DNA of 58,092 nucleotides. It comes from Dehalococcoidia bacterium (lineage in GTDB: Bacteria; Chloroflexota; Dehalococcoidia; GIF9; JAUXIO01). The stretch lies in assembly GCA_030620975.1 (NCBI GenBank), contig JAUXIO010000001.1, positions 1 to 58,092 of the forward strand, given 5' to 3'. How positions within the stretch are numbered: position 1 is the first letter of the stretch; each line of letters begins with the position of its first letter. Below are positions 3,781 through 42,056 of this stretch, one piece after another. The notes beneath the pieces were generated by a model. It was not told the origin of the DNA and searched no databases. It worked only from the letters and a program-made list of their open reading frames with translations. The position numbers were made by a program, and so were the translations under genes.

Positions 3781-4224
3781 ATGACACAAGATTTGTCACA
3801 AGAATTTATTTTTTCAAAAGAAGTTATCAAACAAAACGCACCTACTTCACCTGGTATTTATAAAATCCTTCAGTTACCAGAATACCAACGGTATGAAGGC
3901 AGAACTAGAGTTCTAAAGATCGGACAGTCAGGTTCGGACTTGCAAGCTGAACTTCTGAATCATTTTGCCCGGCATACTACAGCAAATCGTTTAGCACGTA
4001 TTCAGAAACGTTCCGGAGTGCAGGTAACTTTCAAACATATGATTCTTGACTCAGAAGATGCACAAAAAGAAGAGAAATCCTTTTTGCGTCAATTCGAGGA
4101 TAAGCATTGGGATCTCCCGCTACTGAATTCAAAAAGAGGATATGTTCGAGATGAGGACAGGCACTATAGGGTAAAAGTAGTAGCGCAATCAATGCCTCAA
4201 ACATTTTATTCAGGTCTGTGTTAA
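3781..4224 (+). CDS. GIY-YIG-like nuclease superfamily protein (degenerate YIG)
   Basis: PGIYKILQ, then VLKIGQSG after about 15 aa, with later Arg/Glu/Asn positions (KEEKSFLRQFEDKHWDLPLLNS) in GIY-YIG order. SD GGGGGAG lies 8 nt upstream. Confidence 0.55.
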   Translation: MTQDLSQEFIFSKEVIKQNAPTSPGIYKILQLPEYQRYEGRTRVLKIGQSGSDLQAELLNHFARHTTANRLARIQKRSGVQVTFKHMILDSEDAQKEEKSFLRQFEDKHWDLPLLNSKRGYVRDEDRHYRVKVVAQSMPQTFYSGLC

Positions 4225-4914: not shown

Positions 4915-4947
4915 TGTTTGTAACAAGTGGTTATAGGGGGTGTAGCA

Positions 4948-5406
4948 ATGCCAGTCGTAAGAATTAGCGAGGAACTCTTCAAGGAAATCCAGAAATATGC
5001 AGAGCCGTTGGTTGACAACTTCGAAACTGCATTGTGGAAGGCTCTAAGGTCTGCCAGAAAGGACACTGTAGTAATACCTGCTGAACAAAAATTGCACACA
5101 AGAGGAAACCTGACCCCTCAGAGAGCCTTCTGGAAACCTATCTTGGAAGCCATAGTTGAAGAGGGTGAGCAAGCATCTGCTCAGAAGGTTGTTGAAGTAG
5201 TTGAGAGAAAGATGAAAAATCAGCTAAAGCTAGAAGACCTTGCACTAAACCGTGACGGTACAACCAAATGGATAAAGGCAGTACATTATCAGAGATTGGC
5301 AATGGTTCATGAAGGGTTGTTAGCGAGTGACTCACCTCGCGGTATCTGGTCGACAACCGATAAAGGAAGGCAGTGGCTATCTGAAAATGACATCATGGAA
5401 CGTTAA
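4948..5406 (+). CDS. Mrr_N-like winged-helix protein with a short N-terminal RHH-like segment
   Basis: ATG at 4948 with SD AGGGGG 7 nt upstream (the track ORF begins at a GTG at 4927). The C-terminal pattern PILEAIVEEGE..S..KVVEVVERKM..LKLEDL..NRDGTTKWIKAVHYQRLAMVHEGLLASDSPRGIWSTTDKGRQWL fits Mrr_N-type wHTH domains. Confidence 0.6.
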   Translation: MPVVRISEELFKEIQKYAEPLVDNFETALWKALRSARKDTVVIPAEQKLHTRGNLTPQRAFWKPILEAIVEEGEQASAQKVVEVVERKMKNQLKLEDLALNRDGTTKWIKAVHYQRLAMVHEGLLASDSPRGIWSTTDKGRQWLSENDIMER

Positions 5407-5408
5407 AT

Positions 5409-6119
5409 ATGACTACGATCTATAAAGAAATGGAGAAATGTGTTGTATGCGGAAAGACGAGTGAGCATACAAAATGGGGCTCGACAAACGCCTGTGGGTC
5501 GACTGACCTAGATACGAGACCGCCCGAAATGGAGAGGTCCACTATCGACATGTGGATACAGACTTGTCCGTCATGTGGCTACTGTGCTCCAAGTATATCT
5601 GAGCGAATTAAAAAAGCATCGGAAGTGATTAATAGTAATTCTTATAGGCAGCAACTGAACAATCTGAAATTTCCAAAGCTGGCGAATGCTTTTTTCTGTT
5701 ATTCATTAATTCAGGAAAGTGCCGGCAGACACGCACATGCGGGATGGTCTAGCATTCACGCTGCTTGGGCATGTGACGATGATGGTTCAACTGCCAGTGC
5801 GCAAACATGTCGGAAAAGAGCCGTTAACCTATTACAAAAGGCAAGGGAAAGTAGTCAAAGGTTCGTGGAACAGCCCGGAGGAGAAGGAGCACTAATAGTT
5901 GACTTGCTACGAAGGGCAGGGCAGTTTGAAGAAGCTCTCAGGATCTGTGACAATGGATTGAAGAAAAAACCAGAAAAATTGCTCGCAGACATTTTACGTT
6001 TTGAGAAAATGCTTATTGGTGAAGCAGATAATACTTGTCATTTGCTTTCAGAGGCAACAAAGGAGAGTGAGAACGACGGAAACGCCATCGTTATCCTGAT
6101 AGGAAAGAGACAACTATGA
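5409..6119 (+). CDS. zinc-ribbon plus helical-repeat protein (DUF2225-like layout)
   Basis: Two CxxC pairs (CVVCGK ... CPSCGYC) are followed by an alpha-helical, TPR-like C-terminal half. It starts 2 nt after the upstream stop. Confidence 0.6.
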   Translation: MTTIYKEMEKCVVCGKTSEHTKWGSTNACGSTDLDTRPPEMERSTIDMWIQTCPSCGYCAPSISERIKKASEVINSNSYRQQLNNLKFPKLANAFFCYSLIQESAGRHAHAGWSSIHAAWACDDDGSTASAQTCRKRAVNLLQKARESSQRFVEQPGGEGALIVDLLRRAGQFEEALRICDNGLKKKPEKLLADILRFEKMLIGEADNTCHLLSEATKESENDGNAIVILIGKRQL

Positions 6120-6546: not shown

Positions 6547-6874
6547 AAAAGCCAGTTCGAAAGTTCTACCTATTGTTACCCCAGCTCCACCAACAGTCAT
6601 AGAGACATTTTCTTATATCGTTTGATTAGTCCCAATTCCCGAGTTAGAATCGATATTTATATCGTTTTGAATGAAGATCTCTTATCGTCTTGCGGGGGGA
6701 ATGTGGAATTAAAGATATAAATGCAATGGCTATTACAAGGTTGTTAGATTGTCTATAGCAGTTGTCTTTCAGCGGAATGACCCTAATTCTCGTGCCAGCA
6801 AGAAGATGTCTCTGACTACCGTGCGGAGGCATTACTGGGTAATGGATATTTTAATCAGTATAGAGGGAGAATGC

Positions 6875-7290
6875 TCGACGATGGGCTTCACGTTTAGCAG
6901 CGACCCAGCCCAAGCTGCTGCCCTGGCAATGCGGCCGGTTCTTGCAAGATAGTAGAGAGTGTCCAATATAGCCAGGAAGCTTACCTTGTCAATCATGCTT
7001 CGTGTCACATTAGTCACTTGAGCTGGCGCTGCCCCCTGGCTGGCAATTCGGGCTGCTTCGAGGACAACAAATCCTAAGGCGCCGGATACGGCCCGGCTGT
7101 CAATTACCTCGATGGTGGCGTTGGGGATTACCTCTTTGGCCATTTCCCTAGCTACTAATGCTGTATTGAAGATCTTGCTCTGCAGGCCAGTGAGAGTGAT
7201 GCAGAGTATGCTCTCTGCCTTCTGGCTTAGCTGCTGGTAGGCATCTAGGAAATGTTTTGCTGATGGAGTTGAGGTGGTGGGCAGGTCTTT
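6875..7290 (-). pseudogene. DegV-family gene remnant, truncated at both ends
   Basis: The minus-strand reading PTTSTPSAKHFLDAYQQLSQKAESILCITLTGLQSKIFNTALVAREMAKEVIPNATIEVIDSRAVSG...DTLYYLARTGRIARAAAWAGSLLNVKPIV aligns to residues ~59-189 of the intact degV at 2854. A TGA lies directly upstream at 7291-7293. Homology is lost after KPIV (~6877). The N-terminal ~55 aa and C-terminal ~90 aa are missing. Confidence 0.7.
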
Positions 7291-7339: not shown

Positions 7340-7368
7340 TTGACCTTTTCTTTATTTATTGGTATTCT
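7340..7368 (+). promoter_or_regulatory. sigma70-like promoter (TTGACC, 17-nt spacer, TATTCT) for the riboswitch-btuC transcript
   Basis: Hexamers at 7340-7345 and 7363-7368, about 25 nt upstream of the riboswitch. Confidence 0.4.
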
Positions 7369-7392: not shown

Positions 7393-7530
7393 TCCGGGTG
7401 CCCGAACGCGAGAGAGGGCTTAAATGGAGAGCAAGCCGGTGCAATTCCGGCACAGTCCCGCCTGCTGTGATAGTCAGAACGCGGCCCGGATGCAGGTGAC
7501 TGCCTCCGCGAGTGAGGGGGTGGGATTTAT
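7393..7530 (+). promoter_or_regulatory. cobalamin (B12) riboswitch aptamer, copy 1
   Basis: The conserved core is ggcttaaatggagagcaagccGGTGcaATTCCGGcacaGTCCCGCctGCTGTgatagtcagaacgc, including a B12-box-like gtcccgcctgctgt. It sits 5' of a btuC-type permease and is nearly identical in its core to the copy at 15210. Confidence 0.85.
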
Positions 7531-7543
7531 TAATTTAAGTCTC

Positions 7544-7579
7544 AAAAATCCCCTTGTTCTCAAGGCAAGGGGATTTTTA
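7544..7579 (+). terminator. intrinsic terminator / expression platform of riboswitch 1
   Basis: Hairpin aaaatcccctTG-ttctcaagg-CAaggggatttt followed by TTTTT. The 3' arm contains the only SD-like sequence (aagggga) for the ATG at 7584. Confidence 0.6.
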
Positions 7580-7583
7580 TGTT

Positions 7584-8699
7584 ATGGCGAAAGAAAACAT
7601 CGCGAGGAAATCTGCAGCGTTAGAATTATCCCACGTAAGCGCTGGCAAGAAAGTGCTACTTTATCATCTTGGCTGGCGAAATCGGCTATATGCTATAGCC
7701 GGGCTTGGCTTACTTCTGGTACTGGTAATAGTTTTGGCTTCGGCTATAGGTAGCACTCATATTTCCCTCTCTACAGTGGGCAGCATGTTGCTAGCCAGGT
7801 TGCCTTTTGTTGAAATTCCGACTGCTTGGGTAGGCAGCCTAGAAATCATTATTTTTGATATTCGCTTACCTCGGGTAATGTTAGCTGGTCTGGTGGGTGC
7901 TGCTTTGGCGGTTGCCGGGGCTACTTACCAAGGGCTGTTCCGCAATCCCCTTGCTGACCCTTATCTCATTGGTGTGGCCCAAGGGGCGGCTTTGGGAGCT
8001 GTCATTGGTTTCCTTCTGCCGGGAAATTGGCACATAGCCAGTTTTGGTTTTATCCCACTGCTGGCTTTTGCTGGCGCCTTGATGGCGGTGGCTGTTGTTT
8101 ATGCTGTAGCCCGAGTGGGTAAGACTTTGCCAATGACCACGCTGATTCTGGCCGGTGTGGCTTTGGGCGCCTTTTTGGCCTCGATTACTTCTTATTTGGT
8201 TATTACTTCTGGGGAGAAGCTGCACGGCATAGTTACCTGGCTTCTGGGGTCATTCTCATTAGCCAGGTGGGGAGAGGTGATGGTGGTTCTTCCCTATGTG
8301 TTAGTTGGGACAGTGGTTATCTGGTTTTATGCCCGACCATTAAATGTAATGCAGCTTGATGAGGAGCAGGCACAGCAACTGGGCATCAATGTTGAGCGGG
8401 TTAAGTTGATTCTGCTTGCTGCGGCTACTTTAATTACCGCCGCCGCCGTTTGTTTTTGCGGCACCATTGGCTTTGTGGGCATTATCATTCCCCACGCCGT
8501 GCGTCTTATCTGGGGTCCTGACCATCGCTTTCTGTTGCCCTTATCCACCCTGGCCGGCGCCAGCTTCTTAATTTTGGCTGACGCCGTAGCTAGAACTGTA
8601 ATGGCGCCTGCCGAGATACCAATAGGGGTGATAACTGCCTTTCTGGGTGCCCCCTTCTTTCTCTTTCTGTTGCGGCAGAAGAGAAGGGCGATTTTCTGA
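7584..8699 (+). CDS. btuC: FecCD-family ABC permease, B12 importer BtuC-type
   Basis: Multi-TM FecCD pattern (RLPRVMLAGLVGAALAVAGATYQGLFRNPLADPYLIGV...). A riboswitch lies upstream. The ATG at 7584 is preferred because the track start at 7554 falls inside the terminator hairpin. Confidence 0.85.
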   Translation: MAKENIARKSAALELSHVSAGKKVLLYHLGWRNRLYAIAGLGLLLVLVIVLASAIGSTHISLSTVGSMLLARLPFVEIPTAWVGSLEIIIFDIRLPRVMLAGLVGAALAVAGATYQGLFRNPLADPYLIGVAQGAALGAVIGFLLPGNWHIASFGFIPLLAFAGALMAVAVVYAVARVGKTLPMTTLILAGVALGAFLASITSYLVITSGEKLHGIVTWLLGSFSLARWGEVMVVLPYVLVGTVVIWFYARPLNVMQLDEEQAQQLGINVERVKLILLAAATLITAAAVCFCGTIGFVGIIIPHAVRLIWGPDHRFLLPLSTLAGASFLILADAVARTVMAPAEIPIGVITAFLGAPFFLFLLRQKRRAIF

Positions 8700-8701
8700 A
8701 A

Positions 8702-9532
8702 GTGAAGGGGATTAAGGTGCTTGATTTGCGATTGAAGAAAGTTAGCCTGGGCTATGGGGACCAGCTGGTCCTCGAGGGTATTGAACTTGAGGCTAAACCC
8801 GGTGAAATTTTGGGGGTCATTGGACCCAATGGTTGCGGGAAATCAACTTTGATTAGAGGCATTTCCCGCATAATTACACCCAGCTCGGGGCGAATCTTTA
8901 TTGACGGGCAGAATATTGATGTCATGAGTCGAAGTAATTTAGCTCGCATGGTGGCCGTGGTGCCTCAAAGCCCACTTCTACCAGAGTCGTTTACTGCTTT
9001 TGAGCTGGTGCTCATGGGGAGAACTCCCCATCTTGGTCGTTTTAGCTATGAAGGGGAGAAGGATGTAGCTATTGTTCAGAGGGCAATGGAAGTAACTCAG
9101 ACCATTGCTTTTGCCCGTCGTAGATTAAAAGAGCTTTCTGGCGGCGAGAGGCAACGCTTGGTTATCGCCCGGGCTTTAGCTCAGGAGCCCAAGGTAATGC
9201 TTCTCGATGAGCCAACAGCTCACCTTGATATTAATTATCAGGTGGAGATACTTGACCTTGTTAGCCAGCTTTGCCGGCAGCAAGGGTTAATAGTGGTGGC
9301 GACATTACATAACCTTAATTTAGCTTCTCAGTATTGTGACCAACTGGTTATGCTTCACGGGGGAAGAATCTATAGTCGGGGTTCGCCTGGTGCGGTTATC
9401 AATAAACAGGCTATCAAGGAAGTCTATGGGGCTGAAGTTTATGTCTATCCTCACCCGGTTAATAGTTTGCCCATGACTTTTATTGTACCCAGTGAGGATG
9501 GACATAGGCAACGCAGCAGAAAATTAGGTTAA
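8702..9532 (+). CDS. btuD: ABC transporter ATP-binding protein, BtuD/FecE-type
   Basis: Walker A GPNGCGKST, signature LSGGERQR, Walker B MLLDEPTAHLD. Confidence 0.85.
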   Translation: MKGIKVLDLRLKKVSLGYGDQLVLEGIELEAKPGEILGVIGPNGCGKSTLIRGISRIITPSSGRIFIDGQNIDVMSRSNLARMVAVVPQSPLLPESFTAFELVLMGRTPHLGRFSYEGEKDVAIVQRAMEVTQTIAFARRRLKELSGGERQRLVIARALAQEPKVMLLDEPTAHLDINYQVEILDLVSQLCRQQGLIVVATLHNLNLASQYCDQLVMLHGGRIYSRGSPGAVINKQAIKEVYGAEVYVYPHPVNSLPMTFIVPSEDGHRQRSRKLG

Positions 9533-9538
9533 AAATAT

Positions 9539-10468
9539 ATGGAAATTGCAATTATTATCTTGTTGGCCGTTGCTGTTGATATTGCTTTTGGCGAGCTGCC
9601 TAATCCTCTGCATCCAGTGGCTTGGTTGGGTAAGGCTATCTCTTGGGAGACGAAGTGGGTGCCAAGGTGGGGAAAGATAATTGAGCTAATTTACGGCATT
9701 GGCATAGTTCTGGTGACACTGGGGGTGATTGTTACCTGTGTTTATTTTCTTCTAATTTACCTGAAGCAGTTCAGCCCAGTGGCTTATATTTTTGGAGCGG
9801 CTTTTTTGCTTAAGTTCACCTTTTCTCTTAGTGGATTGAAAAAGGCGGCGGTTAAAGTTAGGGACTTTATGGCAGGGGATAACCAAGATGGGGCACGTCG
9901 TCAATTGCGGGCTCTGGTGAGCCGCGATACTACCTCTCTTGATAAGGAACATTTAGTCTCGGCTGTGGTGGAATCAGTGGCTGAAAATAGCTGTGACAGC
10001 TTTGTGGCGCCAATTGGCTATTTCCTCATTTTTGGTGTGCCCGGAGCGGTAGCTTACCGGGTCATCAATACCTTTGATGCCATGGTGGGCTATCATGGGC
10101 ACTGGGAATATTTGGGGAAGTTTGCTGCCAGGCTGGATGATGTGGTTAATTTCTTACCTGCCCGGCTCACCGCCTTAATAATAATCCTGGCTACTTATCT
10201 CCGTAAAAGGGATGTGGCTGGGGCATGGCATATCATGCTTCGCGATCACGGCAGAACAAAAAGCCCCAATGCCGGTTGGACGATGAGCGCCATGGCTGGT
10301 GCCCTGGGAGTGCAGCTAGAAAAGGCAGGATATTATAAGCTGGGTGATAACCATTATTCTTTAGCGCTGGAGACTATAGACTCCTCGCTCCAGTTGATGG
10401 TAATGGTAGCTCTCCTATGGAGCTTGGTATCTGTTTTAACGGGGGTGATGCTCTTTGTTATTGCCTAA
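9539..10468 (+). CDS. cbiB: adenosylcobinamide-phosphate synthase CbiB
   Basis: N-terminal GELPNPLHPVAWLGKAI motif, a membrane protein, in a cobamide operon. Confidence 0.85.
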   Translation: MEIAIIILLAVAVDIAFGELPNPLHPVAWLGKAISWETKWVPRWGKIIELIYGIGIVLVTLGVIVTCVYFLLIYLKQFSPVAYIFGAAFLLKFTFSLSGLKKAAVKVRDFMAGDNQDGARRQLRALVSRDTTSLDKEHLVSAVVESVAENSCDSFVAPIGYFLIFGVPGAVAYRVINTFDAMVGYHGHWEYLGKFAARLDDVVNFLPARLTALIIILATYLRKRDVAGAWHIMLRDHGRTKSPNAGWTMSAMAGALGVQLEKAGYYKLGDNHYSLALETIDSSLQLMVMVALLWSLVSVLTGVMLFVIA

Positions 10469-11558
10469 ACCGGGGATAGATGGGTTTGGACCTTGTGCTC
10501 ATGGGGGGCTTGATTATGGCGAGTTAGAAAAACTGGGTATTGCTCCAGGGGAAATTCTCGATTTTAGCGTCAATTCCAATCCCTTTGGGCCACCGCCGAG
10601 CGTGAAAGAAGCTTTGGCTGATGTGACTATTGAGCGCTATCCCGATTCTGAAGCCATTGAGTTGAAGAGGGCCCTGTCGTTGAAGTTAGGTGTGGCTCCG
10701 CAAAATCTCCTGGTGGGTGGTGGCTCTACTGAGCTGCTCAGGCTGGTGGCACTTGGCTATTTTGGTTGTGATGATTTAGTCCTCATTTCCCAGCCCACCT
10801 TTGGTGAATATGAGGTTGCCTGTCGCTTGGTTGGCGCCCGAGTTCTGATGCAGCAAGCGGAGGAGGAGAATAAGTTTCGGTTGAGAGCGTCGGAGACCGT
10901 GGACTTGATTAAAAGGCATAAGCCCAAAGGTATTTTTTGGGCCAGTCCCAATAATCCCACCGGGCAATATTTTGACAAACGGGAAATTGAGTTAATTCTG
11001 GAAGTGGCTAAAGACAGCTTGGTTATTTTGGATGAGGCTTATATTGCCTTTGTGGCCGAGGCTTGGCCTTCGCTGGATTTAATTGGGTGGGGTAACTTGG
11101 TTGTCTTGCGTTCGATGACCAAGGATTATGCATTAGCTGGGTTGCGTCTTGGCTATGCTGTGGCAGCAGAGTCAATTATTTTTAACCTGCGCCGAGTTCA
11201 ATCGCCGTGGAATGTGAATTGGGCAGCCCAAAGAGCCGGGCTTGCTGCCCTAGCTGAAGATGGATATCTGGAAGAGTGTAAGGTTAAAATTGAAGAAGCA
11301 AAGGAATTCCTTGTAGAAGAACTTACCCGCCTTGGTTTATCCCCCCTGCCATCGCGAGCTAATTTCTTTCTGGTTAAAGTAGGTAAAGCCAGAGAGTTTC
11401 GGCGAACTCTTCTACAGCGGCGAATTCTAGTCCGGGATTGTACCTCTTTTGGCTTAGCTGATTATATTCGGCTGGCTCCCCGAACTTTGCCCGAGTGCCG
11501 CAAGTTAATCGCAGCTATAGAAGATGTCGGAGTTCTGTCAAAAGGTTTGGGTAATTAG
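10455..11558 (+). CDS. cobD: threonine-phosphate decarboxylase (class I/II aminotransferase fold)
   Basis: HGG..., NSNPFGPP, PNNPTG and SMTKDYALAGLRLGY (PLP-Lys region). TTG start overlaps the cbiB stop. Assigned from operon context, so a histidinol-phosphate aminotransferase is not formally excluded. Confidence 0.7.
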   Translation: MLLPKPGIDGFGPCAHGGLDYGELEKLGIAPGEILDFSVNSNPFGPPPSVKEALADVTIERYPDSEAIELKRALSLKLGVAPQNLLVGGGSTELLRLVALGYFGCDDLVLISQPTFGEYEVACRLVGARVLMQQAEEENKFRLRASETVDLIKRHKPKGIFWASPNNPTGQYFDKREIELILEVAKDSLVILDEAYIAFVAEAWPSLDLIGWGNLVVLRSMTKDYALAGLRLGYAVAAESIIFNLRRVQSPWNVNWAAQRAGLAALAEDGYLEECKVKIEEAKEFLVEELTRLGLSPLPSRANFFLVKVGKAREFRRTLLQRRILVRDCTSFGLADYIRLAPRTLPECRKLIAAIEDVGVLSKGLGN

Positions 11559-11608
11559 ACAGAATCTTAGTTTACCTTGAATTTACAGAATAGTCTTTGG
11601 AGGTGATT

Positions 11609-12127
11609 ATGGCTAAGCGCGGTCTTATTCAGGTTTATACCGGTGAGGGCAAGGGTAAAACTACGGCTGCTTTGGGCTTGGCAATGAGGGCTGTGGGACA
11701 GGGGATGAAGGTAATTTTCATTCAATTTGTCAAAGGTGACCCCAACTGTGGCGAGCACCTTTTTGCATCAAAGTATCATCCCTTTGATATAGTCCAGCTC
11801 GCCGTTGGTGATAGTTTTGACAAGACCAAGGAGCAACTCAGTGCAGATGCTCAACGGACTTTGGCTTATGCCGAAGAAGCCATAGTTCACGGCGGCTGTG
11901 ACATGGTTATTCTGGATGAAATTTTTATTGCAGTAAAACAGGGCTCGATAACTACAAAGCAGGTGTTGGACTTAATAGATAAGAAGCCAGAGTCGCTAGA
12001 ATTGGTTTTAACCGGGCGGTATGTCTCCAGAGAAGTGGTGCAGCGAGCTGATTTGGTTACTGAGATGCTCATGATTAAGCACCCTTTTACTGAAGGCATC
12101 CGTGCCCGACCGGGCATTGAGTATTGA
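11609..12127 (+). CDS. cobO: cob(I)yrinic acid a,c-diamide (corrinoid) adenosyltransferase
   Basis: GLIQVYTGEGKGKTTAALGLAMRAVGQG P-loop and VILDE. ATG at 11609 with SD GGAGGTG. Confidence 0.85.
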   Translation: MAKRGLIQVYTGEGKGKTTAALGLAMRAVGQGMKVIFIQFVKGDPNCGEHLFASKYHPFDIVQLAVGDSFDKTKEQLSADAQRTLAYAEEAIVHGGCDMVILDEIFIAVKQGSITTKQVLDLIDKKPESLELVLTGRYVSREVVQRADLVTEMLMIKHPFTEGIRARPGIEY

Positions 12128-13236
12128 TGTGGAGTTTATCTATGACTGATTCCTTAAGCAGAGTCTTGAAAGCAATAAAGCCTTTAGATGAGTCTGCCAT
12201 GGCGGCGGCGCGAAAGCGTCAGGATAGCTTGACTAAACCATTGGGCAGCCTGGGCAGGCTGGAGGAGCTATCAATTAAGATCGCTGGCATCAGGGGTGAG
12301 CCCATGCCCAAGCTTGAACATAAAGCTATTGTAACTATGGCTGCTGACCATGGCGTTGTTGCTGAGGGAGTAAGCCTTTATCCTCAAGAGGTGTCCAGGC
12401 AGATGGTGCTTAATTTTCTCCGTGGTTATGCCGCTATAAATGTTTTAGCCAGTCAAGTGGGAGCAAGAGTGGCAGTGGTTGATATGGGGGTGATTGGCGG
12501 TTTTCCGCCAAATCCCGGTCTGCTGTGCAGGATGATTGACTTTGGCACTGGGAATATGGCGCTGGGACCGGCTATGAGCCGTCAGCAGGCGATAGATGCT
12601 TTGGAAGCGGGCATAGAAGTAGTTGAAGCCGAGATGAGCAAAGGACTTGATATTGTTGCCACTGGCGATATGGGTATTGGCAATACCACGGCCAGCAGTG
12701 CCATTTGTGCGGTTATTACTAGCGAGCCTGTGGAAAAAGTTACCGGGAGGGGTGCCGGGATTGATGATGAGCAATTAATGCATAAAGTTGACATAATCAA
12801 ACGGGCGTTGGAGATTAACCAGCCCGACTCAAAAGACTCAATAGATGTACTGGCTAAAGTTGGCGGCTTTGAGATTGGCGGCTTGGCTGGCGTTATTCTG
12901 GCAGCGGCCGCCCACCGCATTCCAGTGGTTATTGATGGTTTTATCTCCGGAGCTGCGGCCCTCATTGCCGCTGGGCTGTCGCCTCAGGTCAAAGACTATT
13001 TAATCGCCGCTCATGTTTCTGCCGAAGCTGGACATCGAGTTCTGCTTGATTTCCTTGGCTTGAGGCCGCTGCTTGACCTTGAGATGCGTCTCGGCGAAGG
13101 CAGTGGTGCTGCTCTGGGCATTTTTCTTGTTGAAGCCTCGGTAAACATCTTGGCTGGAATGGCTACCTTTAATGAGGCCGGCGTTTCTGAGGCCGAGATA
13201 CCTATGGAAGCTAAACAGAGTGAGGAGGGGGGTTAG
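12127..13236 (+). CDS. cobT: nicotinate-nucleotide--dimethylbenzimidazole phosphoribosyltransferase
   Basis: KPLGSLGRLEEL, GDMGIGNTT and LRLGEGSGAALA-like (MRLGEGSGAALG) motifs. An alternative start lies at 12142. Confidence 0.85.
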   Translation: MWSLSMTDSLSRVLKAIKPLDESAMAAARKRQDSLTKPLGSLGRLEELSIKIAGIRGEPMPKLEHKAIVTMAADHGVVAEGVSLYPQEVSRQMVLNFLRGYAAINVLASQVGARVAVVDMGVIGGFPPNPGLLCRMIDFGTGNMALGPAMSRQQAIDALEAGIEVVEAEMSKGLDIVATGDMGIGNTTASSAICAVITSEPVEKVTGRGAGIDDEQLMHKVDIIKRALEINQPDSKDSIDVLAKVGGFEIGGLAGVILAAAAHRIPVVIDGFISGAAALIAAGLSPQVKDYLIAAHVSAEAGHRVLLDFLGLRPLLDLEMRLGEGSGAALGIFLVEASVNILAGMATFNEAGVSEAEIPMEAKQSEEGG

Positions 13237-13241
13237 GGGAA

Positions 13242-13982
13242 TTGGGCTTTTGGACGGCGCTCCAGTTTTTGACTATATTTCCCACGCCATTACATCGCCA
13301 GGCTAGCATTGAGGAAACTGGCCGTTCCTTGAGCTATTTCCCAGCAGTAGGCTTAATTCTGGGACTTATTCTGCTGGGCGCTGATTACCTATTTAGTTTA
13401 GTTCTGCCCACTTCTGTGGTGAGCGCTTTACTTATTGTTATTCTGGTTGTCCTCAGCGGTGCTCATCATCTTGATGGTTTTATTGATACCTGTGATGGAG
13501 TTGTTGCCGGTAAGTCTAAAGGGGAAAGGCTGGCGATAATGGCAGATAGCAAGGTGGGTGCCTTTGGCATTAGCGGTGCCCTTCTTTTACTTTTGGTTAA
13601 ATATGCAGCCTTGTGGGCGATACTCCAGCAGTTAAGATTGCCCGCTCTGCTGCTCATGCCCACTTTGAGTCGCTGTCTGATGGTTTGGGCTGTCTTTGCT
13701 TTTCCCTACGCTAGGACTTCGGGGACTGGCTTGGCTTTTAAGCGGGGTGTGAGCTGGTCAAAACTAGCTATTGCCACGGTTATAACTCTGGCTGCGTCGC
13801 TGATATTGTTGGGGTGGTGGGGGGCAGCTCTGATGGCAGCCTTGTGGCTCATAGCCTTTGGCATTGCCAGTTATCTGAACTCTAAGCTTGGTGGACTTAC
13901 TGGTGATAGTTATGGCGCTATTAATGAAGTGGGGGAAGTTGTGGTATTAATCTTGCTCATTCCTTTGGCTGGGTGGTTATAG
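13242..13982 (+). CDS. cobS: adenosylcobinamide-GDP ribazoletransferase (cobalamin synthase)
   Basis: A polytopic membrane protein with LQFLTIFP, HLDGFIDTCDG and GGLTGDSYGA motifs. Confidence 0.85.
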   Translation: MGFWTALQFLTIFPTPLHRQASIEETGRSLSYFPAVGLILGLILLGADYLFSLVLPTSVVSALLIVILVVLSGAHHLDGFIDTCDGVVAGKSKGERLAIMADSKVGAFGISGALLLLLVKYAALWAILQQLRLPALLLMPTLSRCLMVWAVFAFPYARTSGTGLAFKRGVSWSKLAIATVITLAASLILLGWWGAALMAALWLIAFGIASYLNSKLGGLTGDSYGAINEVGEVVVLILLIPLAGWL

Positions 13983-14644
13983 TGGCTAAATATGTTGTTT
14001 CCTGGAGCGGCGGTAAGGATAGCTGCCTCGCTTACTGGAAAGCGGTTTGTCAGGGGCTTGAGGTCGCTTACTTGCTGAACTTGGTGAACAAAGATTCGGG
14101 AAAGTCGATGTCTCACGGCTTGGACCCGAAGTTGATAGCTCTTCAGGCGCAGGCAGTGGGCTTGCCCATAATCTACAGGGCAGTTACCTGGGAAAGTTAC
14201 GAGACGGAGTTCAAAGCCGCGCTCAGAGAATTGAAGCCAGAGGGTATTACCGGATTGGTTGCTGGCGATGTTAACCTGCGGGGAGCTGGGGACTGGATGG
14301 ATAGAATTTGTGGTGAAGTTGATGTTGAGCCGGTATTGCCGCTGTGGGGGATGGATGGCTGGGAGATGTTGAATGGCTTCATAGATGCTGGCTTTAGGGC
14401 AATAGTAGTCAGCGTTAAAACGGACTTCTTTGGTAAAGAATGGCTGGGGCAGCCAGTGGATAAGAACCTATTAAGCAGATTCAAGTTGAAACCAGATATT
14501 GACCCCTTAGGTGAATCTGGAGAATACCATACTTTTGTTACCGGTGGGCCGGCCTTTAAGCGTGAGATAAAGATAGAGCAGACTGCTCGGGTATTGAGAG
14601 ATGACCGCTGGTCTCTGGATATTTTGAGGTATAGCCTTGGCTAA
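13973..14644 (+). CDS. MJ0570/Dph6-family PP-loop ATP pyrophosphatase (ATP_bind_4-like)
   Basis: PP-loop VVSWSGGKDSCLA, then PLWGMD, and a C-terminal GESGEYHTFVTGGPAF that matches the GEgGEyhT motif of this family. It overlaps cobS by 10 nt and cobU by 8 nt. Confidence 0.75.
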   Translation: MVIVAKYVVSWSGGKDSCLAYWKAVCQGLEVAYLLNLVNKDSGKSMSHGLDPKLIALQAQAVGLPIIYRAVTWESYETEFKAALRELKPEGITGLVAGDVNLRGAGDWMDRICGEVDVEPVLPLWGMDGWEMLNGFIDAGFRAIVVSVKTDFFGKEWLGQPVDKNLLSRFKLKPDIDPLGESGEYHTFVTGGPAFKREIKIEQTARVLRDDRWSLDILRYSLG

Positions 14645-15203
14645 GGGATGCATTCTTGTTCTTGGCGGCGCTCGCAGCGGCAAGAGCCATTTTGCTCAGG
14701 AATTAGCCGCTAAACTGGGAAGCAGAGTGCTCTTTGTAGCTACCGGTGAGGCTTTAGATGAAGAAATGCTTTATCGGATTAGCCAGCATAAGAAGCTTCG
14801 CCCTCAGAGCTGGCGGACTTTAGAGGTGTCTAAAGAGGTGGGGAAGAAGATAATGGAGCATATTGGTGATGCCGAGGTGGTTGTTATTGATTGTCTTACT
14901 CTGCTTGCCTCCAACGTTGTCACTGAAGGTGAACTTTGGCGGGAACCGGCACGGGCTGAAGAAGAGATGCTGGCTGAAATAAGTGAAATTATTGATTGCA
15001 TGGATAAACTTGCCGTCAGCTTTATCGTCGTCTCTAATGAAGTTGGTATGGGGTTGGTGCCTGAGAATGAGCTGGGCCGCCTTTATCGTGACCTTCTAGG
15101 TAGGGGCAACCAGCTCATTGCTCAGCGTGCTGGCGAGGTTTATCTTCTCGCGGCGGGCGTGCCGGTGAAAATAAAGGAGAAGGACAGTGTAACTGAAAGC
15201 TGA
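14637..15203 (+). CDS. cobU: adenosylcobinamide kinase / adenosylcobinamide-phosphate guanylyltransferase
   Basis: P-loop LVLGGARSGKSHFAQ, about 188 aa, VSNEVGMGLVPEN. Confidence 0.85.
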   Translation: MAKGCILVLGGARSGKSHFAQELAAKLGSRVLFVATGEALDEEMLYRISQHKKLRPQSWRTLEVSKEVGKKIMEHIGDAEVVVIDCLTLLASNVVTEGELWREPARAEEEMLAEISEIIDCMDKLAVSFIVVSNEVGMGLVPENELGRLYRDLLGRGNQLIAQRAGEVYLLAAGVPVKIKEKDSVTES

Positions 15204-15209
15204 AAAGTT

Positions 15210-15345
15210 AAGAGGTGCCTGAGGGTGACCGAAGGCTTAAATGGGGAGCAAGTCGGTGTAATTCCGGCACAGTCTCGCCTGCTGTTAAAGTCAGAACGCC
15301 TGCCTCATTTTAAGTAAGCCTCCGCGGAGAAAGGGGGTGGGAAGA
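15210..15345 (+). promoter_or_regulatory. cobalamin (B12) riboswitch aptamer, copy 2
   Basis: Core ggcttaaatggggagcaagtcGGTGtaATTCCGGcacaGTCTCGCctGCTGTtaaagtcagaacgc and gcctccgcggagaaagggggtggga are nearly identical to copy 1. It sits 5' of btuF. Confidence 0.85.
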
Positions 15346-15425
15346 ATGAATCGAGCAACATTTATGAACCCCCTTGCTCTTTGGAGCTGGGGATTTTTGT
15401 TTGTAGCAAAGCTGAGGAGGTTTTG

Positions 15426-16439
15426 ATGAAAAGATATATTTTAGCGTTTTTGAGTTTATTGATGGTAGTTGGGCTGCTTCTTTCGGCTGCCTGTGCCCCC
15501 GCAGAGGCACCAGTGGCGCCGCCGCCAGAGGCACCGCCGTCTGAGGCACCTTCTGAACTGCCAGCACCACCGCCCGAGCTGGAGGAGCCGCTGCCCAGCT
15601 TTCCTATAACCGTGGTTGATGATTTAGGAAGAACGGTAGAAATTGAGAAGCTGCCACAGCGGGTTATTTCCCTTTCTCCAGGTAATACTGAGATTCTCTT
15701 TGCCTTAGGTTTGGATGATGAAATAGTCGGGGTCACCGCATATTGTAACTACCCCGAGGCGGCTAAGACCAAGCCGAGGGTAGGCGGCTATTATCCTCCA
15801 GATATAGAGAAGATAGTTTCCCTGGAGCCAGATTTGGTATTTGCCGACGCAATCCATGAAAAAGCTGTACTTCCGGCTCTGGAGGATGTGGGACTGACAG
15901 TGGTTGTTAACGCTGCTGAATCTATAGATGCCGTGCTGCACGATATCACCTTGATGGGTCAGATTGTGGGAAAGAGCAGAAGAGCTTCTCAACTGGTTGC
16001 TGACTTGACTGAGAGAATTGAGGCGATAACTGCAAAAACGGGGGCATTAACTCCAGAGCAGCGTCCTCGGGTTCTTTATGTCTGCTGGCATGACCCGATA
16101 TGGACGCAGGGCTCCAAGACTTTCATTGACGATTTGATTGGGAAAGCCGGCGGCATGAATATTGCCAGCGATTTTGAAAAATCTCGGATTATATCGCTGG
16201 AGGCGGTTGTTGCCAGAGATCCTCAAGTGATTGTCGTCAGCGGGATGGGCACAACCGGGGGACTGATTTTCAGCTCCATTAAAAACGAGCCGAGATTGAG
16301 GGGGACGGAGGCGATAGTTAAGGGGCAGATCTATGAAATTGATTCAGACCTCATCGACCGTCCCGGCCCCCGAATAGTAGATGCTTTAGAGCAGGTAGCT
16401 AAGTTCATTTACCCCGAAATATTTGGAATGCCTGATTAA
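15426..16439 (+). CDS. btuF: periplasmic-binding-protein lipoprotein, BtuF-type corrinoid binder
   Basis: ATG at 15426 with SD GAGGAGG. Lipoprotein signal MKRYILAFLSLLMVVGLLLSAAC. A Pro/Ala/Glu-rich linker (APAEAPVAPPPEAPPSEAPSELPAPPPELEEP) precedes the class-8 PBP core VISLSPGNTEILFALGL. Confidence 0.8.
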   Translation: MKRYILAFLSLLMVVGLLLSAACAPAEAPVAPPPEAPPSEAPSELPAPPPELEEPLPSFPITVVDDLGRTVEIEKLPQRVISLSPGNTEILFALGLDDEIVGVTAYCNYPEAAKTKPRVGGYYPPDIEKIVSLEPDLVFADAIHEKAVLPALEDVGLTVVVNAAESIDAVLHDITLMGQIVGKSRRASQLVADLTERIEAITAKTGALTPEQRPRVLYVCWHDPIWTQGSKTFIDDLIGKAGGMNIASDFEKSRIISLEAVVARDPQVIVVSGMGTTGGLIFSSIKNEPRLRGTEAIVKGQIYEIDSDLIDRPGPRIVDALEQVAKFIYPEIFGMPD

Positions 16440-16492: not shown

Positions 16493-19400
16493 GTGAGATT
16501 AAAAGTCTGGGGGCAAATATTAATAATTGCATTGTTATTCAGCTCTTTCTTTTTGGCTAATCCCAGGCCGGCGGCAGCGGATGAGGGGGTTCTTCAGTGG
16601 ATGCGGTTAAATACTCCTCAAAACGGTGTCGCTGGGGAGTATGTGATAGCGAGCAATAGCGAGGTTAACCGCATTGCCATCGGCGCTGATGGCAATGCAA
16701 TTTACGCTTTGGATAGCCAGAACTCGCGGTTATATAAGTCTGGCGATGGCGGTTATGCTTGGCTTGAGCTGTCGGCTTATGTTGGTGGTGGTGCCGCTTG
16801 GACTAATTTGGCGGTATCTCCTGATGATGCCACTATCGTGGCTGTAGTTACCGATGGCGGGACTAATGTCTGGGCATCTCTAGATGGCGGGAATAGCTTT
16901 TTTAATACCAATGTGCCAGCTTTAGGTGCTGCCGAAACCATTACCTGCATTGCCATATCTCCTTGCTATGGTGGATTGTCCGCTGCAGCTAGAGATATAG
17001 CCATTGGCACTGCCGATGCACTGGCTGGCAGCGGCACTGGTCGCGTTTTTATCATGGCTTTGGGTTCCTTCCCCCTGGCCTGGACCGATGTGAGCACCGG
17101 GGCTACCGGCTGGATAAAGCCGCCAATAGCAGCCGTTGATGTCTTTGCTGTAGCTTATCCCGCGGGGTACGGAGCCGATAAGGTAATGTTGGCCATTGTG
17201 GCTGACGTGGCCGCTGGCAGTGGTGACACTTATCTTTACGCTGGACAAAGGGATGCTACCGGCGTTGTTACCTGGAATATCTGGACTGATTACCCGGTGG
17301 AAATTGCTAAAAGTGGGGAGGATTCGCCTCCGTCGCCATTGACTTATGCCTCCTTGGCTTTACCTTCGGACTATTTTGGTGGTGATGCGGCTACACGCCG
17401 CATCTATGCTTCCTGGTCTGACGGCGTTGGCGGCAATGCCAATGACGATGTTTACCGACTGGATGATACCACCGTGGTGCGCCTCGATGCCGGCAGCGGC
17501 GTTGAATTTGTTTGCAGCACTTTGGCTTACTGGGGCACATGTGATGAAGGGAAACTTCTGGCGGGGAGGCGAGCCAGCGCCTGGCCGGCACCTATGGCGC
17601 CCAGCGTTCAGGTACGCAGCACTTCGGAGCCGCAGTTGAGGTTTCCCACCTGGCGAAATAGCCGCAAGCCCCCCACCGGCGTCAATGAGGCTCAGGCGGC
17701 TTGGTCTGCCGACGGCAAGGTGGCTTATTGCGGCACCAGCACCATTGGTGGTGCCGCTAACGATGAGAGTGCCGTATCACAGAGTACCAATGATGGCTTG
17801 AGCTGGAACCAGGTCGGCCTTATTGATACCGTCATTACGCGCGTTAACGATATCGAGCCTGCGCCCCAGGGAGATGTTCTGTTCATGACCACTGTGAATG
17901 CTGGTGCTGCTAAGGCTGATAGCTTGTGGCGCGCTAAAGGCAGCTTACCGTATAGGAAGTGGGAAAGGGTATTAGCTCGCTCAAGCCTTGGTACTGGTGA
18001 CAATCCCCTGATTAGAATTGACCCCGATTATGCCAGTACTGAAACGCTGTGGTGTGTTAACGCCGACCCTGTAAAGGCATTTCAGGAGCTATTTCTTTTT
18101 AAAGACGGTGGTGAAACTTATTTGCCTCGCGGCTGCAATGTAGTTCTGGTTGACCTTGCTGTTGAGGACGAGAATGCCATTTATGGGCTTGATGCTAACG
18201 GTCTTGCCAGTAGGAGCGCTGATGGCGGCTGGACATGGGAAATGCCGGTAGATACTCAACTTGGCAGCGGTTACTCTATAGCCTGTGCTCGCGCAGCTAC
18301 CACCCCGGACAATTATAAGGGCAACATATTGGTTGGCGGCAGGGGTACCGGCACCTATGATGTGGCTTATTCCACCGACGGCGCTGCCAGCTTCACTCCA
18401 ATTACTGAGCTGCTTCCCTTCCGCGATAACACTCTGGTAGCTGCCAGCTCCGGCTACAAGAGCGATGGCAGCATCTTGGCGATTAATTCAGGGGGAATGT
18501 ACTGCTGGGGGATTTTCTCCGGAAAAACTGAGTGGGAGCAGTGGTGGTGGGGGAGCGTGAGCGGCCTGGCGCTGTCCAGGAATTATGGCTTCTACTTTCC
18601 CACCCCAGCCAGTCTATGGGCTCCGGCTACAGTGCAGGTGCGCTGGTGTGCGGCTAATGCCGGGCTTGATGCCGGTATTACTTTCGGCCCTCAACCTAGC
18701 AGGGGAGAGCTGAGGCTCTCCGGTGGTCTGGTGGCTAACGAGCCGGTTACCGCTTGGATTATTGTCCGGCGCCTCTACGGCCCGCCTGCAGGTGGTGTCT
18801 GGTGTTATGTGGATACTTTGTCCTGGCTTGGTCCTGCCCCGGTTACGCCGGCAAGTAGAGCCCTGGTGGATTATGACCCGGTATCGGGGAGAAGTGGAGC
18901 AGTCAGCTTTAAGTGGAAGCCGAGGTCCTTGTCTAAGGGATATCAGATTCAGGTAGCAGCAGATAGAGACTTTAATATAAGCGTCATTGATATTGGCGGC
19001 GGATGGGCTGGTCCCTTTTACAATCCTTCTGCCTTGGCGGAGCCAGCCTTAGTTCTGCCTCCCGGCGGCGGCACAGTTATTGATGGCAGCGGTAACAATT
19101 GGCCGGTTCCCGCTCTCGCTGCTGGCAGGACCTACTACTGGAGAGTTAAAATTCGGGATGTGGCTACTGGTGATGCCATCGCTAGTCCTTGGTCCTGGAC
19201 GGAGGGCTTCATTGTGGAGGCCGGCGTGCCGGTGAGAGCTTCCTCTCCCGGCTTGCTCATTATGAGTCCGTGTAATGGCGCTGCCAGCGTTACCTGCCAG
19301 CCGGCTTTTTCCTGGTCAACTATGCATGGAGCTGCTGAGTATGAGTTTGTCTTAGCTGAAGACGCGGCAATGACCGATGTTGTGATGCAGACGGGAGTAG

Positions 19401-19648
19401 CTGCTTCAGCCTATAAGCATGATGGTTGGCTTGAATGGGGCAAGACTTATTTCTGGCGAGCGAGAGTGACTAAACCAACCCCGGGGGATTGGAGTTCTGT
19501 AGCCACTTTCACAGTGATGGAGCAGTCTTTCCCTGCCGGCGTGGGTGCAGCTGGGGAATTGCCATCAACGCCTATCTGGGCGTGGGCAATTATCGCTATG
19601 GGGGCGGTATCTATACTTGTTGTGCTCGTTCTTATTCTCCGCATGTGA
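16493..19648 (+). CDS. large cell-surface BNR/Asp-box repeat protein with C-terminal TM anchor (S-layer-like)
   Basis: GTG start with SD AAGGAGG. Signal peptide ends at AAADEG. At least 6 Asp-box-like motifs: SGDGGYAW, SLDGGNSF, STNDGLSW, FKDGGETY, SADGGWTW, STDGAASF. The C-terminal Ig/FN3-like modules end in YYWRVK and YFWRARV. The terminal TM is WAWAIIAMGAVSILVVLVLILRM. Confidence 0.75.
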   Translation: MRLKVWGQILIIALLFSSFFLANPRPAAADEGVLQWMRLNTPQNGVAGEYVIASNSEVNRIAIGADGNAIYALDSQNSRLYKSGDGGYAWLELSAYVGGGAAWTNLAVSPDDATIVAVVTDGGTNVWASLDGGNSFFNTNVPALGAAETITCIAISPCYGGLSAAARDIAIGTADALAGSGTGRVFIMALGSFPLAWTDVSTGATGWIKPPIAAVDVFAVAYPAGYGADKVMLAIVADVAAGSGDTYLYAGQRDATGVVTWNIWTDYPVEIAKSGEDSPPSPLTYASLALPSDYFGGDAATRRIYASWSDGVGGNANDDVYRLDDTTVVRLDAGSGVEFVCSTLAYWGTCDEGKLLAGRRASAWPAPMAPSVQVRSTSEPQLRFPTWRNSRKPPTGVNEAQAAWSADGKVAYCGTSTIGGAANDESAVSQSTNDGLSWNQVGLIDTVITRVNDIEPAPQGDVLFMTTVNAGAAKADSLWRAKGSLPYRKWERVLARSSLGTGDNPLIRIDPDYASTETLWCVNADPVKAFQELFLFKDGGETYLPRGCNVVLVDLAVEDENAIYGLDANGLASRSADGGWTWEMPVDTQLGSGYSIACARAATTPDNYKGNILVGGRGTGTYDVAYSTDGAASFTPITELLPFRDNTLVAASSGYKSDGSILAINSGGMYCWGIFSGKTEWEQWWWGSVSGLALSRNYGFYFPTPASLWAPATVQVRWCAANAGLDAGITFGPQPSRGELRLSGGLVANEPVTAWIIVRRLYGPPAGGVWCYVDTLSWLGPAPVTPASRALVDYDPVSGRSGAVSFKWKPRSLSKGYQIQVAADRDFNISVIDIGGGWAGPFYNPSALAEPALVLPPGGGTVIDGSGNNWPVPALAAGRTYYWRVKIRDVATGDAIASPWSWTEGFIVEAGVPVRASSPGLLIMSPCNGAASVTCQPAFSWSTMHGAAEYEFVLAEDAAMTDVVMQTGVAASAYKHDGWLEWGKTYFWRARVTKPTPGDWSSVATFTVMEQSFPAGVGAAGELPSTPIWAWAIIAMGAVSILVVLVLILRM

Positions 19649-41492: not shown

Positions 41493-42056
41493 TTACTGAG
41501 GTAGGTACTTTTGCCATTCCTCATGGAGTTGGAGGTAGTGATGGGGGATATAGAAACCGTTATCTTGCGGTGGCTTTGGTTCGCGGAGAAGAGTCATTTT
41601 GGCTTCGCTGGGAGTATGTCCGGCTTTATGACGATTACAAGATATACATGCGCTGGCAACATTTTCCCAGGTGTGCTTTCCACCTCGCCGTTTCGGAATA
41701 ACATGGTCTAGAGTAAGCTCTTTGGTTTGTTTACTACAATATTGGCAGGTATAGTGGTCGCGATTAAAGACTTCAAATTTGGTCAATTTTGGCTGTCCTC
41801 GGGGCCGCTTGACCATATAAATCAGGTGGACCACTGAGGGGATTAGGAAGGTTTCCCTGACCGAGTGAAGCATGCCCGAATTGTTTTCTAGCGCCTCAGC
41901 TTTGCCGCGAAGAATTAGAACTAGGGCTCGACGTACCAGACAGATATTGAGTGGTTCATAGTTTTGATTAAGCACTAGAACCGGCAGATTTACCAATGGC
42001 TTAATATCCTCCCGCTTAAGATAAGCCATTTTAGCAGAGAGGATTTCAGGTTGCAA
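41493..42056 (-). CDS. HNH endonuclease (McrA-like)
   Basis: CQYCSKQTKELTLDHVIPKRRGGKHTWENVASACISCNRHKAGH is a complete HNH/zinc motif. It starts 7 nt after the dnaC-like stop. Confidence 0.8.
   Translation of the reverse strand: MQPEILSAKMAYLKREDIKPLVNLPVLVLNQNYEPLNICLVRRALVLILRGKAEALENNSGMLHSVRETFLIPSVVHLIYMVKRPRGQPKLTKFEVFNRDHYTCQYCSKQTKELTLDHVIPKRRGGKHTWENVASACISCNRHKAGHTPSEAKMTLLREPKPPQDNGFYIPHHYLQLHEEWQKYLPQ

Follow-up and report, generated by a model that had tools for sequence, protein, structure and literature searches.

A DUF71-B12-type PP-loop ATP pyrophosphatase encoded between cobS and cobU in a riboswitch-headed corrinoid salvage operon of a Dehalococcoidia bacterium

The stretch of DNA analysed here (the window) comprises 58,092 nucleotides of the Dehalococcoidia bacterium contig JAUXIO010000001.1, and its cobalamin (B12) operon contains, between cobS and cobU, a gene for a PP-loop ATP pyrophosphatase that we refer to as X (13973–14644, + strand, likely starting at 13982). 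By its domain match, motifs and predicted structure, X belongs to DUF71-B12, a published subgroup of the PP-loop ATP pyrophosphatases of COG2102/PF01902, and is one of its bacterial members; the layout of the operon indicates that it is co-transcribed with cobS and cobU as part of a riboswitch-repressed unit for corrinoid import and rebuilding. Across many phyla X keeps its association with genes for the uptake of corrinoids and for assembly of the nucleotide loop, and we consider it fairly probable that X is an ATP-dependent corrinoid-modifying salvage enzyme. The family, its histidine signature and its link to B12 salvage have already been published, and this locus adds a member and no new concept. 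What is new here is that cobS, X and cobU are tightly coupled in a conserved manner in Dehalococcoidia, that nucleotide-loop genes and TonB receptors are prevalent neighbours in uncultivated phyla, that X occurs alongside CobC and occasionally CbiZ, and that it can be fused to an adenosyltransferase and to Cys-rich domains.

The only Pfam match in the X protein is to PF01902 (Diphthami_syn_2, formerly DUF71/ATP_bind_4), with an E-value of 1.5e-48 and with residues 6–221 covering model positions 2–218 of 219; it has no histidine-phosphatase domain with the RHG motif and no CbiZ (PF01955) domain. In the 223-residue translation the PP-loop SWSGGKDS occupies residues 10–17 and the C-terminal motif GESGEYHTF residues 180–188. 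A profile of 22 relatives, compared with proteins of solved structure, matched only PH1257 (2d13) and PF0828 (3rjz/3rk0/3rk1), with E-values of about 1e-40. The AlphaFold2 model of X (predicted local distance difference test score, pLDDT, 90.9; predicted template-modelling score, pTM, 0.87) agrees with the same two proteins at template-modelling (TM) scores of 0.86–0.89 and 28–30 % identity, and the next structural matches, at TM scores of about 0.4, are QueC, LarE, argininosuccinate and GMP synthetases, NAD synthetase, TtuA and TilS. QueC, LarE and the NAD, GMP and argininosuccinate synthetases share with X the Rossmann-like PP-loop core and the conversion of ATP to AMP and pyrophosphate (PPi), but only this N-terminal nucleotide-binding core aligns, whereas the substrate-binding C-terminal half of X is Dph6-specific. 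An earlier, sequence-only reading of this DNA had placed X in the PP-loop, Dph6/MJ0570-type family, and the Pfam match, the profile matches and the structure model all bear this out. Residues S12, G13, G14, K15, D16, H48, E181, G183, E184 and T187 are invariant in an alignment of X with 21 relatives, and they match the ATP-phosphate ligand positions given as common to both subfamilies in the comparative study that defined DUF71-B12 (PMC3541065), in which S12, G13, G14, K15, D16, H48 and T189 (PF0828 numbering) are listed as retained in DUF71-B12 copies. The alignment also shows a conserved set of Trp residues (W11, W22, W73, W108, W125 and W157), a Trp-rich surface that may be a pocket for the corrin.

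X therefore has the Dph6 fold and an intact set of ATP/pyrophosphate-binding residues, whereas the catalytic Glu of Dph6 is replaced by an invariant His. The C-terminal motif of the archaeal proteins PH1257 and PF0828 reads GEGGEFETF, so that His186 of X stands where Dph6 has Glu188. A scan of GTDB with one genome per species retrieved 579 relatives of X when an alignment profile was used and none with the single sequence; all species-locus counts below refer to the best 80 of these 579, with flanks of up to 10 kb on each side. The His signature is present in all 83 homologues with a readable motif among 87 open reading frames (ORFs) from the 80 species loci and from metagenome loci. At the second position of the ENGE-type motif X has Ser instead of Asn, and this position varies among N, S, A, T, K and E in the 83 homologues. 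Compared with Dph6 (EC 6.3.1.14; PF0828, PH1257 and yeast YLR143W), X thus shares the fold, the ATP-binding residues and the C-terminal GExGE-x-x-TF motif, and differs in the His in place of Glu188, in its score with TIGR03679, the NCBIfam equivalog model for archaeal Dph6 (142.2 bits, under the cut-off of 197.3), in its bacterial host without diphthamide and in its location in a cobamide operon. Many bacterial His-type homologues in NCBI and JGI, including P0007, P0015, P0055, P0082 and many JGI entries, carry the public name 'diphthine--ammonia ligase'. This name is a systematic over-annotation, because the catalytic Glu is absent, the equivalog cut-off is missed and bacteria lack diphthamide.

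The ORF tool assigns X a GTG start at 13973, and at these limits it overlaps cobS (13242–13982) by 10 nt and cobU (14637–15203) by 8 nt, as the sequence-only reading had stated. The cobU overlap stands and is kept in the relatives of loci L001 and L002, but that with cobS is likely to be only 1 nt. X probably starts at GTG 13982, 9 nt downstream of the tool's start, and comprises 220 residues, because P0001 (96 % identical, 220 residues) and most other relatives begin three residues later in the alignment, and because this codon forms a TAGTG stop/start overlap with cobS and has a GGTGG Shine-Dalgarno-like motif upstream. Translational coupling of X with both cobS and cobU is probable from these overlaps.

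The operon is ordered btuC-btuD-cbiB-cobD-cobA-cobT-cobS-X-cobU behind a promoter-like site, a cobalamin riboswitch and a terminator-like hairpin, all on the + strand, and its genes overlap or stand no more than 38 nt apart; no convincing internal terminator was found within it. The candidate promoter (7340–7368), identified by consensus match only, is sigma-70-like (TTGACC-17-TATTCT with a TG extension). It is followed by the riboswitch aptamer (RF00174, 7379–7503; 38 bits against a gathering threshold of 31.5, E 4e-6) and, right behind this, by the hairpin (7500–7523), which is likely to be the expression platform. The genes for the btuC-like FecCD permease (7554–8699) and the btuD-like ABC ATPase (8702–9532) were assigned by position and homology, with homologues in related loci that match PF01032 and PF00005, respectively. 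They are followed by cbiB for adenosylcobinamide-phosphate synthase (9539–10468; PF03186, E 1.5e-85; TIGR00380, 268.7 bits against a cut-off of 165.9) and by a cobD-type gene for a class I/II aminotransferase-fold protein (10455–11558; PF00155), a candidate threonine-phosphate decarboxylase whose assignment rests on context because its TIGR01140 score of 250.9 bits is below the cut-off of 290.55. The remaining genes are cobA/cobO for the corrinoid adenosyltransferase (11597–12127; PF02572, E 9e-59; TIGR00708, 168.8 bits against 167.75), cobT for nicotinate mononucleotide (NaMN):base phosphoribosyltransferase (12124–13236; TIGR03160, 457.9 bits), cobS for cobamide-5'-phosphate synthase (PF02654, E 1.7e-51; TIGR00317, 139.4 bits against 110) and, downstream of X, cobU for cobinamide kinase/cobinamide-phosphate guanylyltransferase (PF02283, E 8e-56; NF004469, 190.2 bits against 161). 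The operon context and B12 riboswitch of the earlier reading are borne out by these Pfam, NCBIfam and Rfam matches. Its statement that the window holds no cobC and no cbiZ was also upheld: profiles built from related-locus proteins (16 CobC-like, 3 CbiZ and 12 CbiP) found no cobC, cbiZ or cbiP at E ≤ 10 in any six-frame ORF of at least 50 residues in the window.

A word-indexed search with X gave 2,395 matches at E ≤ 1e-10, the closest 96 % identical and the rest at most 65 %, with the named ones from Dehalococcoidia; when 1.84 billion representatives were searched exhaustively, 3,599 clusters passed an E-value limit of 1e-3, 1,788 a limit of 1e-10 and 163 a limit of 1e-30. The hosts of the 80 species loci include Dehalococcoidia, other Chloroflexota, Omnitrophota, Nitrospirota, Elusimicrobia, Planctomycetia, Thermodesulfobacteriota and Atribacterota among the bacteria, and Bathyarchaeia, Methanocellales and Methanosarcinales among the archaea. 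Locus genes were called with the window's own proteins together with CbiZ, CbiP and CobC seeds; the first CobC seed was an E. coli sequence, and its matches were independently confirmed by Pfam. At least one specific cob or btu gene was found beside X in 41 of the 80 loci, a minimum figure, since many of the contigs are short. The genes present were cobS (29 loci), cobT (28), btuF (27), cobU and btuC (25 each), cobC (16), cbiB and cobA (11 each), cbiP (10) and cbiZ (2), and the commonest immediate neighbours of X were cobS upstream (13 loci) and cobU downstream (8 loci). In 17 loci from diderm phyla a TonB-dependent receptor (Plug and barrel) follows directly 3' of X, often with a TonB-like gene. 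X is thus tied most closely to cobS and cobU and to uptake. The contigs encoding P0045 and P0120, which are 59–61 % identical to X, carry cobS-X-cobU with the same overlaps, in operons of the order btuFCD-cbiB-cobD-cbiP-cobA-cobT-cobS-X-cobU and btuFCD-cbiZ-cbiB-cobD-cbiP-cobT-cobS-X-cobU. The linkage, which the earlier reading had asked to see outside this genome, is not due to chance, because cobS-X-cobU recurs at this level of identity and X lies among cob or btu genes in 41 of 80 loci.

Two of the clusters, L051 (7663–8388 and 10251–10943) and L082 (9983–10669 and 12546–13217), from Omnitrophota/Planctomycetia, each encode two His-type X paralogues among cob/btu genes, with a TonB-dependent receptor between them and a radical SAM/SPASM protein of about 450 residues ahead, which is also present in L067 and L076. 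In the Atribacterota locus L039, group II intron domains (2034–2283 and 3836–3991, +) lie immediately 3' of the X homologue.

Several homologues are fused to other domains, and the His motif is present in each of the following. P0228 carries a PduO-type cobalamin adenosyltransferase domain (PF01923, 32.8 bits against a gathering threshold of 24), P0204 the Cys-rich domain PF04071, P0233 and P0247 a Cys_rich_CWC domain and P0238 a GNAT domain, whereas P0129 is a tandem X-X protein. PF04071 is also the last domain of the CobD-type protein in L040, a Methanosarcinales locus that encodes X too, and the Cys-rich domain of Methanosarcina CobD (MM2060) is reportedly tied to threonine kinase activity. 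The link of X to adenosyl-corrinoid chemistry is strengthened by these fusions. In L040, the genes for a fusion of CbiZ with a PgpA-type phosphatase (212–1288, −) and for the CobD-type protein ending in PF04071 (2191–3558, −) adjoin btuFCD-cobT-X. Two further proteins, P0168 (2455 residues) and P0264 (523 residues), have PF01902 fused to DUF4116 repeats, the former also with kinase-like, DIT1_PvcA and HAD regions; they are probably from eukaryotes or giant viruses and unrelated to B12.

The sequence-only reading was not aware of any role given to this family in the metabolism of cobamides. However, involvement in B12 salvage had been predicted in 2012 (de Crecy-Lagard, Forouhar, Brochier-Armanet, Tong and Hunt, Biol Direct 7:32; PMC3541065), when DUF71-B12 was defined by comparative genomics. 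According to that study, bacterial and some extra archaeal DUF71 copies have ENGEF/YH188 instead of EGGE/DxE188, the residues of Dph6 that bind elongation factor 2 are not conserved in them, bacteria make no diphthamide, and the carriers include Chloroflexi, Bacteroidetes, Clostridium perfringens, Thermotogae and gamma-proteobacteria. The authors found 75 of 102 members adjoining btuCDF and 18 of 102 adjoining cbiB, and a strict anticorrelation with CbiZ in bacterial genomes, those with CbiB having either one; they proposed that DUF71-B12 does the job of bacterial CbiZ or provides another route for pseudo-B12 salvage, and called for experiments. X resembles this group in PF01902, in the SGGKDS PP-loop, in the ENGE[F/Y]H-type motif with His for Glu188, in its clustering with B12 transport and salvage genes, in its bacterial host and in the lack of a nearby cbiZ. 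It differs in the Ser of its GESGEYH motif, and X and most of the 80 species pair most tightly with cobS, cobT and cobU, whereas btuCDF and cbiB were stressed in 2012. Among the relatives of X, moreover, CbiZ and CobC can share the operon in bacteria, which was not shown in the 2012 data set.

The mechanism that we propose for X as an ATP-dependent corrinoid-modifying enzyme builds on the chemistry of its fold. Dph6 activates the carboxylate of diphthine by adenylation and amidates it with NH3, and adenylation of a C=O oxygen is also catalysed by QueC, LarE, NAD synthetase and GMP synthetase. X would bind ATP and transfer its adenylyl group to the oxygen of a carbonyl or carboxyl group on an (adenosyl)corrinoid, with release of PPi, and a nucleophile would then resolve the acyl-adenylate. 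In the preferred version the nucleophile would be free ammonia, as in Dph6, and the substrate a carboxylate in a side chain of an imported corrinoid that is incompletely amidated or has been deamidated; the reaction would be carboxylate + ATP + NH3 -> amide + AMP + PPi, and X would repair or mature salvaged corrinoids ahead of their completion by CbiB, CobU and CobS. This re-amidation of corrinoid side-chain carboxylates, also the first guess of the sequence-only reading, is put forward tentatively. It would be the chemically most conservative reading, as it keeps the Dph6 chemistry, and it would be compatible with X beside CbiZ, CobC, CbiB or CbiP, with the transporter neighbours and with unclustered 'housekeeping' copies.

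A number of observations weigh against a corrinoid-modifying role or against its amidation version. In 39 of the 80 species loci no cob or btu gene is in reach of X; no neighbour of these orphan copies is conserved in more than five loci, the recurring ones being generic ABC ATPases and aminotransferases, and Rfam found no cobalamin riboswitch at the 17 of the 39 orphan loci that were checked. The orphan copies are therefore not visibly B12-regulated, and part of the family may act outside corrinoid metabolism. CbiP, the amidating enzyme for side chains b, d, e and g of the corrinoid, shares the cluster with X in 10 loci, so X could be redundant for amidation. No partner glutamine amidotransferase and no sign of an ammonia channel were identified for X, and the amidation version leaves the bacterial CbiZ anticorrelation of 2012 unexplained. 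A 2016 review (PMC5041015) still gave the function of DUF71-B12 as unknown, and full-text literature searches found no published biochemical or genetic test of any member, yielding just the 2012 paper and works that cite it. In a neighbour-joining tree the X of the window falls in a Dehalococcoidia clade in which all copies are clustered, and elsewhere clustered and orphan copies interleave.

The alternatives differ in how they accommodate the neighbours of X. In Dehalogenimonas and Dehalococcoides the module has been described as cobTSCU (PMC13390414), and X occupies the positional slot of cobC in this Dehalococcoidia cobT-cobS-cobC-cobU module, in a window that has no His_Phos_1 gene; from this position the sequence-only reading had raised a possible link to the absence of cobC. 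That X replaces CobC, the alpha-ribazole-phosphate/cobamide-5'-phosphate phosphatase, is nevertheless hardly credible, because 16 of the 29 cobS-containing species loci have a Pfam-confirmed His_Phos_1 cobC (E 1e-57 to 1e-61) clustered with X, including the Dehalococcoidia loci L017 (cobT-cobS-cobC-X-cobU) and L083 (cobT-cobS-cobC-X), and because the PP-loop fold with its intact ATP site gives no precedent for a phosphomonoesterase. The cobT-cobS-X-cobU order of the window resembles that of L017 minus cobC, and with cobC and X co-occurring, the position of X reflects loss or relocation of cobC and not replacement. A CbiZ-type function, as hypothesised in 2012, is a more substantial but still unlikely alternative: X would act on cobamides that the cell cannot use, such as adenosyl-pseudocobalamin, by removing their lower ligand or nucleotide loop, or would open another route to this end, and its product would be adenosylcobyric acid, to be rebuilt by CbiB, CobD, CobU, CobT and CobS. 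This would agree with the anticorrelation with CbiZ in bacteria and the presence of one or the other in CbiB genomes (PMC3541065), with the occurrence of CbiZ in just 2 of the 80 species loci, both archaeal, and with the fusion of X to the CobD Cys-rich domain, which ties it to the linker branch; the operon of the window likewise has cbiB and cobD, which are required only where cobyric acid is an intermediate, but lacks cbiZ. The correlation of X with the absence of cbiZ holds locally in most bacterial loci, but Pfam-confirmed cbiZ shares the X operon in the bacterial Dehalococcoidia locus L003/L004 (btuFCD-cbiZ-cbiB-cobD-cbiP-cobT-cobS-X-cobU) and in the archaeal loci L010 and L040. Furthermore, cbiB is nearby in only 11 of the 41 clustered loci, and many loci are of the type btuFCD-cobC-cobU-cobT-cobS-X-btuB with no cbiB or cobD within 10 kb, where cobyric acid would be a dead end unless cbiB is encoded elsewhere in the genome. 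The strictly conserved ATP-binding PP-loop is also hard to square with a plain amidohydrolase, and no PP-loop enzyme is known to act as a simple amidohydrolase. Equivalence of X to CbiZ is thus weakened, and X is not strictly an alternative to it.

A place in the aminopropanol-linker branch with CbiB and CobD, where X would activate the f-propionate of cobyric acid for amide formation or would supply or attach the linker, appears decidedly unlikely. Carboxylate adenylation followed by amide formation is Dph6-type chemistry, PF04071 is otherwise found on CobD-type proteins, no threonine kinase of the PduX/BluE type was noticed in the window operon in Pfam/NCBIfam scans, and X adjoins cbiB in L067, L071 and L076, as do 18 of the 102 members noted above. 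However, 30 of the 41 X-containing clusters are without cbiB and cobD, CbiB is considered to carry out this ATP-dependent ligation (EC 6.3.1.10) unaided, and PP-loop enzymes split ATP to AMP and PPi and are not kinases. A role for X as the threonine kinase itself was rejected on this last ground and because X also occurs in clusters without cobD, and a role as CbiB substitute was rejected because X and cbiB co-occur in 11 loci, the window included. We regard it as very unlikely that X is a true diphthine-ammonia ligase or a non-corrinoid housekeeping protein that merely hitch-hikes in the operon. The public names of close homologues and the 39 loci outside cob clusters, with no conserved neighbours and with no riboswitch at the 17 checked, would fit such a role, but His stands in place of the catalytic Glu188, the TIGR03679 score is 142 bits against a cut-off of 197, and the closest relatives are from Dehalococcoidia, which as bacteria have EF-G and no diphthamide. 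Against hitch-hiking, the start/stop overlaps with cobS and cobU are kept at about 60 % identity, the clustering with cob and btu genes recurs in at least eight phyla, and there are cob-related fusions.

The favoured reading of X as an ATP-dependent corrinoid-modifying enzyme has a bolder form, which we offer as a speculation: X would be the founding ATP-dependent corrinoid-tailoring enzyme, adenylating a corrin side-chain carbonyl. Two variants are possible, of which one would re-amidate deamidated cobamides, a repair of cofactor damage for which no enzyme is known, and the other would exchange or cleave the f-side-chain amide in an ATP-dependent manner, as a third and mechanistically novel remodelling route beside CbiZ and CbiR. 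If true, such a role would explain why, in many uncultivated phyla, X accompanies corrinoid importers, cobS and cobU. CbiZ (adenosylcobinamide/pseudocobalamin amidohydrolase, PF01955) and CbiR (the Akkermansia cobamide phosphodiesterase, PMC7733943) are likewise accessory genes in salvage clusters, located beside transporters and cobU, cobT and cobS, and most bacterial loci with one of CbiZ and X lack the other, although the two sometimes co-occur. Their folds are unrelated to that of X, and CbiZ and CbiR are ATP-independent hydrolases with demonstrated activity, whereas X keeps a predicted ATP-pyrophosphatase site.

The ability of one microbe to live on the vitamin B12 of another is shaped by the salvage and remodelling of cobamides, and the microbes concerned include organohalide-respiring, marine and subsurface Dehalococcoidia, which are unable to make the corrin ring. 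The PF01902-like family comprises 3,599 representative clusters at 50 % identity, and close relatives of X occur in at least 579 species genomes. DUF71-B12 was first flagged 14 years ago, and knowledge of its reaction would close one of the last gaps in salvage reconstruction and correct thousands of annotations. X and its relatives narrow the options, as they point to no CobC substitute, to no strict CbiZ alternative and to closest ties with cobS/cobU and uptake.

Downstream of the operon, a second cobalamin riboswitch aptamer (15196–15321, +; 32.6 bits, just above the gathering threshold of 31.5) overlaps the stop codon of cobU and is followed by a gene for a btuF-like periplasmic/substrate-binding protein (15381–16439, +; Peripla_BP_2 in Pfam/NCBIfam). 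The btuF-like gene and the gene for a large surface protein behind it would therefore be regulated apart from btuCD and the cob genes. The product of the latter gene (16493–19648, +), 1051 residues long, has a signal peptide at its N-terminus, a membrane anchor at its C-terminus, Asp-box/BNR motifs (SxDxGxxW) at residues 83, 129, 431 and 575 and no solid Pfam match; its homologues close the same B12 operon in other Dehalococcoidia (L001, 14822–17689, E 5e-79; L002; L058, 3381–6530, E 1e-44). The protein could be a propeller that captures corrinoids at the cell surface of monoderm Chloroflexota, with a function analogous to that of BtuG in Bacteroides.

By Pfam annotation, the other ORFs of the window are all housekeeping genes. 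Just 5' of the first riboswitch, a 103-residue ORF (6832–7143, −) matches only the middle of DegV (model positions 102–190 of 280). An intact DegV gene is present at 2854–3702 (+), with Mrr_N-like and DUF2225 genes (4927–6119) between the two, and the partial DegV region may be a leftover of rearrangement or insertion. Further downstream, the segment 41493–45509 (−) contains genes for an HNH endonuclease (41493–42056), a 487-residue protein (42064–43527) and dnaB (44133–45509). The 487-residue protein has two AAA+ modules, one IstB-like and one DnaA-like, and may be an unusual duplicated helicase-loader-like protein.

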